Of a DNA stretch of 64,000 bases, positions 43,430-47,418 are shown piece after piece; the stretch's first letter is position 1, and each line of letters opens with the position of its first letter. The translations under genes and the position numbers were made by a program. This DNA is from Eledone cirrhosa (Eukaryota). The notes under the pieces are model-generated. The model searched no databases. It was not told the origin of the DNA and saw only the letters and a list, made by a program, of their open reading frames with translations. The stretch lies in NCBI GenBank assembly GCA_964016885.1, contig OZ024740.1, positions 153,574,001-153,638,000 on the forward strand, read 5' to 3'.

Positions 43430-44189
43430 CAGAAACTAATTAGTTGGAGTGAAAATTTAAGTAAGTAAGTTAATTTTTTTTTTTTAATTTTTTTAAAGAA
43501 ATTTTCTTATTTTACGTCTTTTATATTATTGTTCTGCATTCTCCTGCATTGAACCACCTAGGTACTATGACATAACCTGTGTATTTGCTGGCATTAGCGT
43601 ACATCTGTGCGCTTATGTTAGTAGATATATTAAATTATCTATATTTATCTCCAAATCACTGATTTGTCGAGCAAACCTGCCAAAACCACTTCTAAATTTT
43701 TTTGGGGGGTGTTAGTAGGCGTCTGTCATCCTACCATCCCATTCCTACTGACTAGCCTCTGTGTCACGTGATTGATTCTTTAGAATCGGCCATATGATCA
43801 GTGGCAGTGAGAATTTTCAGTAGCTGGAATCCAGTCCTCGATAGCTGTTCCAGTTGCCGAATTATTATTATTTTTATATGAGTCCCCAGTGTCCGCGCAT
43901 TGCCTGGAGACTCGGCTGAGAATGACCTCCCTGATGACGCAATGAAATTCTCAACAGTTCATTACGTAACTGTCTTTATCCCATTGCAGAAACTAATTAG
44001 TTGGAGTGAAAATTTAAGTAAGTTAATTTAAAAAAAATTTTTTTTTAAAGAAATTTTCTTATTTTACGTCTTTTATATTATTGTTCTGCATTCTCCTGCA
44101 TTGAACCACCTAGGTACTATGACATAACCTGTGTATTTGCTGGCATTAGCGTACATCTGTGCGCTTATGTTAGTAGATATATTAAATTA

Positions 44190-44195
<6 letters not shown>
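43430..44195 (+). mobile_element. Hammerhead-bearing repeat of about 557 bp, variant A, about 1.35 units
   Basis: cagaaactaattagttggagtg at 43430 and 43987. Hammerhead fold at about 43926-44007. Ends in (TA)n. Confidence 0.85.
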
Positions 44196-44238
<43 letters not shown>

Positions 44239-44433
44239 TTTTTGCCTTATGACAGCTGGTTTTCACGCCGTAACATTAGATACATTATATACCCCCCACC
44301 TAAGTAATGTCAGGGTCTCCTTAAATAGTTTATTGATAGCATTGTTGTAATAATTGTTGTTGTTATTGTTCTAATTGAATGCCATAACTACTCCATATTT
44401 TCTTTTCTTTTCTTGCCTGTGTATTTTCTTCAT

Positions 44434-44556
44434 TCTCGCATGCTCCGAAGATCTGACTGGTTATAATTCTGTATTGGCGATCGAATGACGCAAAATTAGG
44501 CGGATAGCGATCTCTAGACAGACCAGTTCAGTGAAACAAATGTAAGCTATGTGAAT
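44434..44556 (+). ncRNA. Hammerhead-like fold with long stem II insert and mutated core (CCGAAGA)
   Basis: catgct CCGAAGA t-ctgactggt...accagttcag-t GAAAC aaat GTA agctatg, followed by aataaa. It sits in an island of about 370 bp between (TA)n tracts. Confidence 0.5.
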
Positions 44557-44602
44557 AAAAATTTTTTTGTATAGCAAACCATGTAAACCTTCTTTCCTGA
44601 TT

Positions 44603-44639
<37 letters not shown>

Positions 44640-44646
<7 letters not shown>

Positions 44647-46705
44647 GACGTAAAATAAGAAAATATTTTTTTAAAAAAATTAAAAAAAAAATTTTTTTCT
44701 TACTTAAATTTTCACTCCAACTAATTAGTTTCTGCAATGGGATAAAGACAGTTACGTAATCCAACTGTCGAGAATTCATTGCGTCATCAGGAAGTCTATT
44801 CTCAGTTAAGTCTCCAGGCAATGCGCGGACACTGGCGGCTCATATAAAAATAATAATAATTCGGTAGATCGAACAGCTTGCGAGGACTGGATTCTATGTA
44901 CCGAAATTCTCACTGCTTCAAGTCAAATGGCCGATTCTAAAGAATCAATCACGTGACACAGAGGCTAGTTAGAAGGAATGGGATGGTAAGATGACTGACG
45001 CCTACTAACACCCCAAAAAAAAATTTTTTTTTAGAAGTGGTTTTGACAAGTTTGCTCGACAAATCAGTGATTTGGAGATAAATATAGATAATTTAATATA
45101 TCAACTAACATAAGCGCACAGATGCACGCCCATGCCAGCAAATACACAGGTTATGTCATAGTACCTAGGTGGTTCAATGCAGGAGAATGCAGAACAATAA
45201 TATAAAGGACGTAAAATAAGAAAATATTTTTTTAAAAAAATTAAAAAAAAAATTTTTTTCTTACTTAAATTTTCACTCCAACTAATTAGTTTCTGCAATG
45301 GGATAAAGACAGTTACGTAATCCAACTGTCGAGAATTCATTGCGTCATCAGGAAGTCTATTCTCAGTTAAGTCTCCAGGCAATGCGCGGACACTGGCGGC
45401 TCATATAAAAATAATAATAATTCGGTAGATCGAACAGCTTGCGAGGACTGGATTCTATGTACCGAAATTCTCACTGCTTCAAGTCAAATGGCCGATTCTA
45501 AAGAATCAATCACGTGACACAGAGGCTAGTTAGAAGGAATGGGATGGTAAGATGACTGACGCCTACTAACACCCCCAAAAAAATTTTTTTTAGAAGTGGT
45601 TTTGACAAGTTTGCTCGACAAATCAGTGATTTGGAGATAAATATAGATAATTTAATATATCAACTAACATAAGCGCACAGATGCACGCCCATGCCAGCAA
45701 ATACACAGGTTATGTCATAGTACCTAGGTGGTTCAATGCAGGAGAATGCAGAACAATAATATAAAGGACGTAAAATAAGAAAATATTTTTTTAAAAAAAT
45801 TAAAAAAAAAAAAATTTTTTTCTTACTTAAATTTTCACTCCAACTAATTAGTTTCTGCAATGGGATAAAGACAGTTACGTAATTCAACTGTCGAGAATTC
45901 ATTGCGTCATCAGGAAGTCTATTCTCAGTTAAGTCTCCAGGCAATGCGCGGACACTGGCGGCTCATATAAAAATAATAATAATTCGGTAGATCGAACAGC
46001 TTGCGAGGACTGGATTCTATGTACCGAAATTCTCACTGCTTCAAGTCAAATGGCCGATTCTAAAGAATCAATCACGTGACACAGAGGCTAGTTAGAAGGA
46101 ATGGGATGGTAAGATGACTGACGCCTACTAACACCCCCAAAAAAATTTTTTTTAGAAGTGGTTTTGACAAGTTTGCTCGACAAATCAGTGATTTGGAGAT
46201 AAATATAGATAATTTAATATATCAACTAACATAAGCGCACAGATGCACGCCCATGCCAGCAAATACACAGGTTATGTCATAGTACCTAGGTGGTTCAATG
46301 CAGGAGAATGCAGAACAATAATATAAAGGACGTAAAATAAGAAAATATTTTTTTAAAAAAATTAAAAAAAAATTTTTTTCTTACTTAAATTTTCACTCCA
46401 ACTAATTAGTTTCTGCAATGGGATAAAGACAGTTACGTAATCCAACTGTCGAGAATTCATTGCGTCATCAGGAAGTCTATTCTCAGTTAAGTCTCCAGGC
46501 AATGCGCGGACACTGGCGGCTCATATAAAAATAATAATAATTCGGTAGATCGAACAGCTTGCGAGGACTGGATTCTATGTACCGAAATTCTCACTGCTTC
46601 AAGTCAAATGGCCGATTCTAAAGAATCAATCACGTGACACAGAGGCTAGTTAGAAGGAATGGGATGGTAAGATGACTGACGCCTACTAACACCCCAAAAA
46701 AAATT
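44640..46705 (-). mobile_element. Tandem array of about 3.7 near-identical units of about 560 bp, variant B, one hammerhead per unit
   Basis: tataaaggacgtaaaataag at about 44640, 45201, 45760 and 46322. Hammerheads at about 44714-44795, 45275-45356, 45837-45918 and 46395-46476. Confidence 0.92.
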
Positions 46706-47416
46706 TTTTTAAAAAAATATTTTCTTATTTTACGTCCTTTATATTATTGTTCTGCATTCTCCTGCATTGAACCACCTAGGTACTATGACATAACCTGTGT
46801 ATTTGCTGGCATGGGCGTGCATCTGTGCGCTTATGTTAGTTGATATATTAAATTATCTATATTTATCTCCAAATCACTAATTTGTCGAGCAAACTTGTCA
46901 AAACCACTTCTAAAAAAAAATTTTTTTTGGGGTGTTAGTAGGCGTCAGTCATCTTACCATCCCATTCCTTCTAACTAGCCTCTGTGTCACGTGATTGATT
47001 CTTTAGAATCGGCCATTTGACTTGAAGCAGTGAGAATTTCGGTACATAGAATCCAGTCCTCGCAAGCTGTTCGATCTACCGAATTATTATTATTTTTATA
47101 TGAGCCGCCAGTGTCCGCGCATTGCCTGGAGACTTAACTGAGAATAGACTTCCTGATGACGCAATGAATTCTCGACAGTTGGATTACGTAACTGTCTTTA
47201 TCCCATTGCAGAAACTAATTAGTTGGAGTGAAAATTTAAGTAAGAAAAAAATTTTTTTTTAATTTTTTAAAAAAAATATTTTCTTATTTTACGTCCTTTA
47301 TATTATTGTTCTGCATTCTCCTGCATTGAACCACCTAGGTACTATGACATAACCTGTGTATTTGCTGGCATGGGCGTGCATCTGTGCGCTTATGTTAGTT
47401 GATATATTAAATTATC

Positions 47417-47418
<2 letters not shown>
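46706..47418 (+). mobile_element. Inverted continuation of the variant B array, about 1.25 units
   Basis: Reverse complement of the preceding units. Orientation switches in aaaaaaaattttttttaaaaaaa. Ends in (TA)n. Confidence 0.92.
47148..47229 (+). ncRNA. Type I hammerhead fold, representative of the array
   Basis: acttc CTGATGA c-gcaatg-aattctc-gacagtt-ggattacgt-aactgtc-tttatcc-cattgc-a GAAAC taatta GTT ggagt. Variant A has ctcc/ggag in stem I, so pairing is retained. Confidence 0.7.

Follow-up and report, generated by a model that had tools for sequence, protein, structure and literature searches.

How does a non-coding repeat that carries a hammerhead motif come to lie in two opposed head-to-tail arms between (TA)n runs, and which enzyme could have placed it there? 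Within the 64-kb window (the whole stretch of DNA that was analysed), about five near-identical units of such a repeat lie in two opposed arms, the strand flipping from one arm to the other, with (TA)n runs on either side, and the initial annotation attributed this to rolling reverse transcription of an RNA circle, which is the standard retrozyme hypothesis (PMC7229834), with a template switch or second priming at the flip. The reading favoured here, at a probability of about 0.75, is that the array is likely one young non-coding retrozyme insertion, likely made by a PLE RT/endonuclease acting in trans, for which the template was likely a unit-length RNA circle.

The array and its hammerhead motifs

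The repeat unit is 558-562 bp long with a GC content of 36%, and measurement of its copies bears out the tandem array with a strand flip that had been described earlier, as follows.

43430..44196, plus strand: diverged subfamily copy, a separate insertion of 1.38 units with 89% identity
44606..44643: (TA)19, left flank of the main array and its likely target
44639..46711, minus strand: inverted arm, 3.69 units head-to-tail, from sequence comparison of units
46702..46711: inversion junction with a 10-nt A/T microhomology, read from the sequence
46702..47421, plus strand: direct arm, 1.27 units, from sequence comparison of units
47417..47780: TA-rich microsatellite, right flank of the main array, common to the neighbouring insertion

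The (TA)n boundary claimed by the initial annotation holds on both sides of the main array, but in the diverged copy it applies to the 3′ end only, after which (TA)n runs to 44237; the other end of this copy is 5′-truncated within the upstream hammerhead, with a stem-III stub at 43434-43445. When homopolymer tracts are excluded, the five main units differ by two private substitutions (one at 45884, one in the plus arm), the other differences listed among them touch G/T and A/T runs, and homopolymer lengths vary from unit to unit. Where the diverged insertion covers the unit twice, the two stretches match at 143/143 positions, yet an A/T tract differs between them, which one circle without later slippage fails to explain. 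The array contains no protein-coding ORF above 79 aa (one ATG ORF of 79 aa lies on the circularised unit) and no LTR/PBS/PPT layout (PBS and PPT being judged from the layout only), while the unit lacks a tRNA gene (0 found by ARAGORN) and the A box of a tRNA-derived promoter, and its one B-box-like 9-mer, on the antisense strand, is probably there by chance.

Six full hammerhead cores were located, and a complete type I hammerhead is present in each of four consecutive minus-strand units, in agreement with the one hammerhead per complete unit proposed previously.

43931..44002, plus strand: hammerhead of the diverged copy (core 43931-44002)
44714..44795, minus strand: hammerhead copy (core 44790-44719), predicted cut after 44719
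45275..45356, minus strand: hammerhead copy (core 45351-45280), predicted cut after 45280
45837..45918, minus strand: hammerhead copy (core 45913-45842), predicted cut after 45842; reference copy for the comparison with reads
46395..46476, minus strand: hammerhead copy (core 46471-46400), predicted cut after 46400
47148..47229, plus strand: type I hammerhead (core 47153-47224), predicted cut after GUU at 47224

The copy at 47148..47229 has a stem I of 5 bp, a CUGAUGA core, an extra C/A, GAA, a palindromic stem III and a 6-bp stem II with a 37-nt extension that holds a 7-bp inner helix. The palindrome noted in the initial annotation holds, but stem III proper is the 10-mer ACUAAUUAGU rather than the quoted 12-mer, whose outer A and U are core A14 and the cleavage-site U17 and lie outside the stem. 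A strict descriptor, defined after the motif had been seen, matches six times in the window and not once in 100 dinucleotide-shuffled windows or 2000 unit shuffles, and a relaxed descriptor gives eight matches in the window compared with a shuffle mean of 0.09. The Rfam hammerhead families do not match the units, neither at the gathering score nor at E<=10, likely because stem II is extended by 37 nt and an additional base pair is present; three weak Rfam matches were dismissed as chance.

PLE ribozymes are characterized by a long helix II, a helix I of 4-5 bp, an extra nucleotide after A9 and a palindromic helix III (PMC4209133), and all six complete hammerheads match them throughout (a conserved core, an added base behind A9, the pair G10.1-C11.1, a long helix II beside a short helix I, and a helix III that is palindromic), an anatomy that is counted for a PLE origin. 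Among 19 hammerhead rows from File S2 of PMC8557442, whose families the text of that paper suggests to be of the Hydra clade of PLEs, stem II has an additional base at each side in 13/19, an ACT..AGT stem III occurs in 14/19 and U at the cut in 6/19. The exact C/A extra pair of the array is present in a non-Hydra element, PLE-X1_cBra.

Four further hammerhead motifs, unrelated to this repeat and missed by the initial annotation, lie within the 64 kb, and five unrelated motifs in such a span suggest a genome unusually rich in elements of this kind.

The repeat family in public reads and its predicted folding

The repeat family is abundant, diverse and tandem in public reads. Run X1 gave 1112 contigs in total, with 332, 345, 311 and 124 contigs at identities of 99% or more, 95-99%, 90-95% and less than 90%, respectively; its summed word depth is 2e4-5e5 and X22 contributed 7698 reads, such depth being no copy number and the organism of the reads (organism A) not necessarily the species of the window. 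Near-identical copies also turn up at low depth under organism labels B and D, where they may reflect contamination or else elements that are shared or were transferred. Hundreds of X22 reads contain the head-to-tail joint, as do contigs from all four runs compared; the inversion joint, which falls within A/T tracts, is known from the assembly alone. Within so diverse a family all five units carry identical minority alleles, which points to one template lineage. Among 40 of the 131 variant rows, variants affect 0/35 positions in the core, stem II or stem III and 38/466 elsewhere (Fisher p 0.10), the commonest stem I allele converts U.G to C-G, and of the 18 variant rows at positions that pair confidently in the circle fold, 6 break the pair. 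The inner helix shows two compensatory pair changes (G-C to U-A and C-G to U-A), with all four changes in one X4 contig. The share of the unit's words in the RNA-labelled runs listed is low (at most 0.06). Clusters of X22 read ends (45585, 45649/45652, 45896 and 45981/45984) were rejected as element ends and taken as restriction ends since all are at AATT sites, two metagenome matches from a 20-mer scan (L001 and L002) were set aside since they share nothing else with the unit, and viral contigs searched with the unit gave 0 matches.

Folding prediction gives -44.4 kcal/mol for a dimer vs -32.4 for two monomers. For a transcript with two ribozymes, the predicted probability is 0.89-0.91 for the inter-unit stem III, 0.93-0.95 for stem II and 0.40-0.72 for one stem I, whereas in the monomer it is about 0 for both stem I and stem III. 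The hammerhead is predicted to be active as a dimer of adjacent units and not as a monomer, and the dimeric use of the palindromic stem III suggested by the initial annotation is supported by the modelled inter-unit helix (about 0.9, compared with about 0 in the monomer). Weighing against the dimer prediction are the second stem I, with a probability of about 0, and the 7 kcal/mol that it is calculated to cost to force both active sites together. Circular folds have z-scores of -3.3 (main unit) and -6.1 (diverged unit; 40 shuffles each) with 63-66% of the nucleotides paired, to which A/T tracts contribute, and a joint fold of the main and diverged variants reaches -106 vs -87+-7 and -91+-5 for two sets of 40 controls. 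These two variants of the window differ by one compensatory both-side change, which is not above controls. In the predicted fold of the unit-length circle, self-pairing is strong and the ribozyme is misfolded.

Ends, inversion junction and neighbouring PLEs

At each of the three RNA-sense 3′ ends, UAUAU runs directly into (TA)n; measured from the predicted cleavage site, the ends lie 80 or 198 nt downstream, and 0/3 coincide with that site. The minus-arm end (44639) is the UAUAU at unit +76..80, while the plus arm and the diverged insertion end at the same UAUAU at unit +194..198, 118 nt away; a 561-nt unit has only four TATAT sites, and each of the three ends falls at one of them. The inversion junction links unit position about 247-256 in the minus arm to about 38-48 in the plus arm, an asymmetry on which a fold-back read artefact was rejected as its source, and the arms overlap on the unit by 33-43 nt, as was noticed post hoc. 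In the twin priming of LINE-1, the inverted 5′ segment is primed internally by the second target strand and the arms are joined by microhomology, as is proposed for the array; LINE-1 differs in its enzyme class and in poly(A) priming, while the array is instead proposed to derive from a tandem or circular non-coding RNA template.

The strand flip, treated as an oddity by the initial annotation, is not one among PLEs, as an inverted 5′-truncated copy is reported to be common in their insertions, and such copies stand with partial tandems and (TA)n targets among the traits of PLEs (PMC8557442). The location of the 3′ ends downstream of the ribozyme accords with the internal RT initiation described for the anole Poseidon PLE (Frangieh et al. 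2024, PMC11167929) and is counted for the PLE reading. Both target strands are cut and extended by that element from fixed internal starts at AT-rich targets, and the array geometry would fit such a course; the start site of that element is without target homology, whereas here each of the three ends has 5 nt (UAUAU) in common with (TA)n.

Adjacent to the array are the following elements.

47781..48107, minus strand: piece of F2, a second hammerhead repeat family, with its ribozyme deleted
48108..49500, plus strand: Hydra-clade PLE, 5′-truncated and broken, the candidate mobiliser clade
50362..51543: second PLE, from a different clade, its two arms inverted relative to each other (minus arm 51122-50362, plus arm about 51118-51543)

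The Hydra-clade fragment, 0.7 kb from the array, contains the end of the RT, a CxCX5C linker and a GIY-YIG-type nuclease to 49109, and its 3′ region carries a decayed hammerhead (49363-49392) and ends in (TA)n. Its ORF is 35-40% identical to seven proteins of 582-722 aa, and those of them that were aligned display RWR/RFK/RWK, DKT or DKS, YRDDG, CxCX5C, CxxC and CxH, which are Hydra signatures; on this comparison a Neptune label was replaced by Hydra. Pfam gave no match for the 48102-49109 protein and a sub-threshold GIY-YIG in 1/4 homologues. This PLE, the likely enzyme source, had been overlooked by the initial annotation. The F2 piece and the Hydra fragment are fused 5′-end to 5′-end with no (TA)n between, and the inverted F2 piece does not fit the overlap pattern of 33-43 nt. 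The second PLE brings the number within 5 kb of the array to two; at a distance of 4 kb, with arms of unique sequence that overlap by 32 nt, it is a unique-sequence model of the array geometry, and similar inversions occur in three elements of the window other than the array.

According to Craig et al. 2021 (PMC8557442), Hydra is a (TA)n-targeting PLE group, and its members resemble the array in (TA)n insertion, partial tandems and an inverted 5′-truncated copy, and in hammerheads whose stem II is flanked by one extra base at each side, with an ACT..AGT stem III and often U17. The array differs in having no ORF and no match to the local Hydra 3′ region, in its perfect even palindrome (most listed Hydra stems III have a 1-nt centre) and in a much longer stem II. 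Insertion at (TA)n, seen at 3/3 of the 3′ ends of the repeat, is a trait not exclusive to Hydra, as Naiad and Neptune PLEs also favour microsatellites. The unit has no detectable similarity to the 3′ region of the local Hydra element (best E 0.28, with a single decayed copy compared) or to the other hammerhead families.

Origin of the array

The hammerhead anatomy, the (TA)n ends, the inversion geometry and the neighbouring Hydra ORF likely count for a PLE-mediated insertion, and the link to Hydra, which rests on target, neighbourhood and ribozyme style with no sequence similarity to the Hydra 3′ region, stands at about even odds. Tandem copies would be transcribed in the hammerhead sense, the palindromic stem III would hold adjacent hammerheads together, these would cleave after GUU to give monomers of ~560 nt, and a host ligase would circularise the monomers. 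A PLE protein, most likely of the Hydra clade (at about even odds), would then cut both strands of a (TA)n tract. One DNA end may anneal to UAUAU at +194..198, probably the favoured start, given the two insertions with this end, and be extended for 1.27 rounds, and the other may anneal to UAUAU at +76..80, within 33-43 nt of the first cDNA stop, and be extended for 3.69 rounds; both ends are those observed. Joining of the two cDNA ends by repair at the 10-nt A/T microhomology seen at the junction would generate the strand flip.

The same element and enzyme could also have copied, by twin priming, a linear transcript that comprised at least five units and was left uncleaved, the ribozyme being dispensable and no circle involved, and for the template step this is a serious competitor at somewhat less than even odds. 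The arms fit one RNA in order (3.7 units upstream and 1.27 downstream, meeting within 33-43 nt), the same geometry is present in a non-tandem PLE of the window, and the anole PLE in vitro mainly used uncleaved RNA, with a ribozyme that needed protein (PMC11167929). However, five ribozymes must then stay uncut on a 2.8-kb RNA despite the predicted inter-unit helix probability of 0.9, copying that truncates 5′ ends only shortens arrays so that a separate lengthening step is needed, and circles have been demonstrated for coral, mussel and axolotl retrozymes. The balance between circle and linear multimer tips slightly towards the circle. What stands of the original proposal is a retro-mobilised hammerhead repeat with second priming for the flip, while the circle is not separable from an uncleaved multimeric transcript.

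It is unlikely that the unit is simply the terminal repeat (pLTR) of an autonomous PLE outside the window and the array a run of pLTR-only copies. The ribozyme is of PLE type, and Xenopus retrozyme families match pLTRs, with 24/57 families matching known TEs (10.64898/2026.07.22.740005), but five whole units follow one another with no ORF over 79 aa, the head-to-tail joint recurs in X22 reads and in contigs of 4/4 runs, and none of 13 loose contig ends (of 222), which are short, is recognisable as coding. Descent of the unit from a pLTR is likely, and compatible with the preferred retrozyme reading. Even less probable is a DNA-level satellite grown by unequal crossing-over, which a preprint invokes for array growth (10.64898/2026.07.22.740005), with an inversion from break repair or a library or assembly chimera, as might be suggested by the junction within A/T tracts, the varying homopolymer lengths and an inversion known from the assembly alone, but is opposed by outer ends that are both RNA-sense 3′ ends at UAUAU/(TA)n, an independent insertion that ends at the same base, the asymmetric junction with its counterparts in three other elements, and variation that respects RNA helices.

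The array comprises consecutive hammerhead units (four on the minus strand) that are non-coding, with a GC content below 50%, a length within the known range, a predicted self-paired circle and a high-copy family in company with PLEs, as in retrozymes. In two studies of animal non-LTR retrozymes (Cervera and de la Pena 2020, PMC7229834; Li, Clavereau and Pollet 2026, 10.64898/2026.07.22.740005), these likewise have non-coding head-to-tail units with GC <50% and one type I hammerhead each, a predicted self-paired circle, a weak palindromic stem III predicted to be dimeric, and PLEs in the genome. The initial annotation considered the unit unusually long, but 558-562 bp falls inside the 51-972 bp of families in the latter study (mean 650 bp in ray-finned fish); the former gives 150-450 bp. 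Known retrozymes differ in circles of 170-400 nt on northern blots (the unit here is longer) and in a canonical loop 1/loop 2 ribozyme in place of the PLE variant with a long stem II extension; most metazoan circles are predicted to fold their ribozyme freely, whereas the monomer circle here is predicted to misfold, and 8/9 Xenopus dimers were uncleaved in vitro (10.64898/2026.07.22.740005). The sections of these two studies that were considered contain no description of (TA)n-fused ends or of a two-arm inversion. Among other classes, autonomous PLEs have an RT and GIY-YIG ORF between pLTRs and the array has no ORF, and plant LTR retrozymes have type III hammerheads in two LTRs and a 4-bp TSD, where the array has type I motifs head-to-tail and no LTR pair. 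Chlamys non-autonomous elements such as MRC1 are also non-coding PLE dependants with multicopy head-to-tail insertions (PMC8557442), but they are green algal, mostly without hammerheads, target (CA)n or (C)n and have 3′ similarity to autonomous partners, unlike the array.

The repeat likely joins the known animal retrozymes, a class of parasitic RNAs in which the array itself is no surprise. A doubtful extension is that a Hydra-clade enzyme, with UAUAU priming, copied one RNA circle by rolling from the two ends of a cut (TA)n and that one RNA of a retrozyme and one of Hydra together gave rise, in a single insertion, to the F2-Hydra fusion (47781-49500). If true, it would identify which enzyme mobilises animal retrozymes and show circles as its template, both of which are so far hypotheses, and it would give exact start sites (+80 and +198), a target and an enzyme clade for reconstitution. 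The young insertion supplies a candidate enzyme clade along with fixed priming sites, a target and an arm geometry common to the neighbouring PLE, and its array serves as a clean test case for the enzyme that moves retrozymes, for the circle as template and for the formation of PLE inversions.

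Array layout and hammerhead anatomy

The hammerhead repeat unit (558-562 bp, GC 36%) forms a two-armed main array, with a diverged copy lying nearby as a separate insertion:

44639-46711, minus strand: minus arm of the main array, 3.69 unit copies
46702-47421, plus strand: plus arm of the main array, 1.27 unit copies
43430-44196: diverged copy, 1.38 units, 89% identity, 440 bp left of the main array

Within the main array, what separates the five units is two private substitutions together with varying homopolymer lengths. The layout bears out the initial annotation, which had described a tandem array of about 560-bp units with a strand flip and, in each complete unit, one hammerhead with a palindromic stem III; its remark that the unit exceeds the familiar few-hundred-nt animal retrozymes does not make it unusually long, the length falling within the 51-972 bp reported (10.64898/2026.07.22.740005). 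The ribozyme is of type I, with a 5-bp stem I, a CUGAUGA core followed by an additional C, stem II of 6 bp (first pair G-C, 37-nt extension), then an extra A and GAA, and a 3′ part made of the 10-nt palindrome ACUAAUUAGU followed by U17. A strict descriptor, defined post hoc once the motif was known, finds six unit hammerheads in the window and gives zero hits across 100 shuffled windows and 2000 shuffled units; a relaxed descriptor finds 8 in the window vs 0.09 expected; an Rfam search returned no hammerhead match.

This anatomy is identical in type to that published for the hammerheads of Penelope-like elements (PLEs), for which a long helix II, a helix I of 4-5 bp, one additional base following A9, G10.1-C11.1 and a palindromic helix III are described (PMC4209133). 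Among 19 rows examined in File S2 of PMC8557442, an extra base flanks stem II on both sides in 13, stem III is ACT..AGT in 14 and U is at the cut in 6; from that paper's text we infer that the families behind these rows belong to the Hydra clade of PLEs. The exact C/A extra pair of the unit is found in PLE-X1_cBra, a non-Hydra element. The unit shows all testable features of a non-LTR retrozyme, the known class of non-coding animal hammerhead repeats, with expression and cleavage putative. The array is not an autonomous PLE, and retrozymes have been argued to be non-autonomous PLE derivatives (10.64898/2026.07.22.740005). Open-access titles yielded no literature on cephalopod ribozymes or on a link between retrozymes and Hydra elements.

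Predicted activity and the family in public reads

Folding predicts that the unit hammerhead is active as a dimer of neighbouring units (-44.4 kcal/mol vs -32.4 for two monomers). When 656 nt spanning two ribozymes are folded, p is 0.89-0.91 for the inter-unit stem III, 0.93-0.95 for each stem II and 0.40-0.72 for stem I of the downstream site, with the other stem I and every monomer form at about 0; the penalty is 7 kcal/mol if both active sites are imposed on the fold and 11 if a single monomer form is. Folding a monomer as a circle leaves its stem I at a p of about 0. Published PLE ribozymes cleave poorly in vitro (PMC4209133), and 8/9 Xenopus retrozyme dimers are reported without cleavage (10.64898/2026.07.22.740005).

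The family is diverse in public sequencing runs. Among 24 runs listed, 20 have some unit words and five have half or more, with three organism labels represented, and the RNA runs among them hold the unit at no usable level. Four (X1, X4, X6 and X22) were aligned to one unit (window 45560-46120), and the head-to-tail unit joint is present in all four. The 1112 contigs from X1 fall into four bands of identity and have summed depths of 2e4-5e5; X22 contributed 7698 matching reads. Low-depth contigs numbered 10 in X4 and one in X6, among them near-identical stretches 401 and 292 nt long. These last copies (2-3 differences per 292-401 nt, under other organism labels) may reflect contamination, close kin or transfer.

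Of the 131 variant rows, 40 were covered; among these the core and stems II and III carry no variant (0/35 positions vs 38/466 elsewhere, p 0.10), and stem I has one, C-G for U.G, which is the majority allele. In the same rows the stem II extension has 7 variant positions, with two inner-helix pairs changed on both sides. Outside the ribozyme the pattern is less uniform: the 18 rows at confidently paired positions comprise 9 with the pair kept, 3 partner-rescued and 6 broken. The joint fold of the two window variants, the main-array unit and the diverged copy, reaches -106 vs -87 and -91 for controls, with only one both-side change. A loose sequence end in X1 and X22 reveals a subfamily that has the unit's core and extra C with a different stem II.

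Neighbouring repeats and PLEs

Other elements in this microsatellite-rich genome are:

50362-51543: second PLE, of another clade, with RVT_1 and GIY-YIG matches and C-x2-C inside the GIY-YIG core
53463-54107: F2, 438-bp unit, 1.5 tandem copies, Hydra-style hammerhead at 53799-53829
13843-14223: F3, 319-bp period, hammerhead at 14018-14050, U3-A8 core variant
55132-55420 (minus) and 56502-56796: F4, hammerhead-like motifs at 55388-55325 and 56599-56662, opposite strands
10296-10595, 21854-21978, 33920-34117, 55175-55304 and 58737-59124: copies of a dispersed SINE-like repeat

F2 and F3 are partial tandems with (TA)n ends, and their circular folds have z of -5.7 and -5.0. At the F2 locus (53182-54257) a short 5′ piece lies inverted and each end is (TA)n, the whole being enclosed by a ~150-bp inverted repeat resembling a MITE. 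In the F3 hammerhead stem II has 4 bp and stem III is palindromic; the F3 copies at 13843-14223 and 18303-18356 end at the identical base before (TA)n. The F4 motifs, which like the Hydra hammerhead motif come from a looser scan without shuffle control, combine a long stem II with a palindromic stem III made entirely of A and U; a dispersed repeat splits one F4 copy, and 67 bp of inverted sequence come directly after the other. F2, F3 and F4 have no sequence relation to the unit or the Hydra 3′ region where compared. The dispersed repeat (130-190 bp, >10 copies in the window) may resemble an octopus SINE. Hammerhead scans found none in the other tandem repeats at 18878-19242 (5 x 73 bp), 33038-33943 (2 x about 465 bp) and 38571-39453 (two copies of about 530-bp period).

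An ORF fragment at 48102-49109 has 35-40% identity to seven of 2001 candidate proteins, these seven being 582-722 aa long, and the six of them that were aligned carry the RWK-like, DKT, CxCX5C, CxxC and CxH motifs that define the Hydra clade, almost all families of which insert into (TA)n (PMC8557442). The fragment's 3′ region, which runs out into (TA)n, contains a decayed hammerhead whose stem III is palindromic and which has GUU. This Hydra-clade PLE is truncated at its 5′ end and there directly abuts an inverted F2 piece (47781-48107), likewise at that piece's truncated 5′ end, with no (TA)n in between; the fusion (47781-49500) has TA microsatellites at both outer ends. As read on the sense strand of the second PLE, a (CA)n run comes after that element.

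Ends, inversion and proposed mechanism

Both array arms point outward in the ribozyme sense. The left end is a UAUAU at unit +76..80 (counted downstream of the predicted cleavage site), and the right end and the diverged copy's end are the same 5-mer at +194..198, each leading directly into (TA)n; UAUAU occurs four times in the unit. The 5′ end of the diverged copy is a plain truncation without (TA)n. The arms meet at 46702-46711 in 10 nt of A/T microhomology and, as noticed post hoc, overlap by 33-43 nt (plus arm from +38..48, outer end of the inverted arm at +80); in the second PLE the inversion falls within the ORF, and the overlap there is 32 nt of unique sequence. The geometry of LINE-1 twin priming matches both the array arms and the inverted PLE. 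Among open-access titles none dealt with twin priming, whether for PLEs or for retrozymes; partial tandems, inverted 5′-truncated copies and 30-40-bp tails are described as common PLE traits of undefined origin (PMC8557442), and the protein of the anole PLE cuts and extends both strands in vitro and starts at an internal site that lies downstream of the ribozyme and has no homology to the target (PMC11167929). Five short X4 contigs match 45718-45776 alone (60 bp, unit about +65..+125), a stretch that contains the putative priming site at +76..80 and is a candidate protein-binding element common to diverged relatives.

We propose, with a probability of roughly 0.75 for the mechanism as a whole, that the retrozyme is mobilised in trans by a PLE. 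Tandem copies would be transcribed, the predicted dimer of neighbouring hammerheads would cleave the transcript, and ligation would give a circle predicted to be self-paired; a PLE protein would then mobilise the RNA, both target strands would be primed at UAUAU and the cDNA arms would be joined through microhomology. The chances that this enzyme is of the Hydra clade are about even. The circle is narrowly preferred as template, with an uncleaved multimer nearly as probable: the anole PLE result (PMC11167929) counts against the circle, as does the fact that the diverged insertion's two parts differ in an A/T tract; the circle is favoured by five near-identical units from a diverse family, by a dimer helix predicted to form fast, by RNA circles shown in other animals and by the need for some step that lengthens arrays. 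None of the three ends, the array's two and that of the diverged copy, lies at the cleavage site, which rules out as template a linear monomer released by cleavage and copied starting at its 3′ end.

The F2-Hydra fusion is possibly one insertion from two different RNAs; a deletion joining two insertions would look alike. If the former is true, the fusion would be a physical trace of a PLE mobilising another RNA in trans. The retrozyme class is already known, and to it the array adds a testable mechanistic lead.
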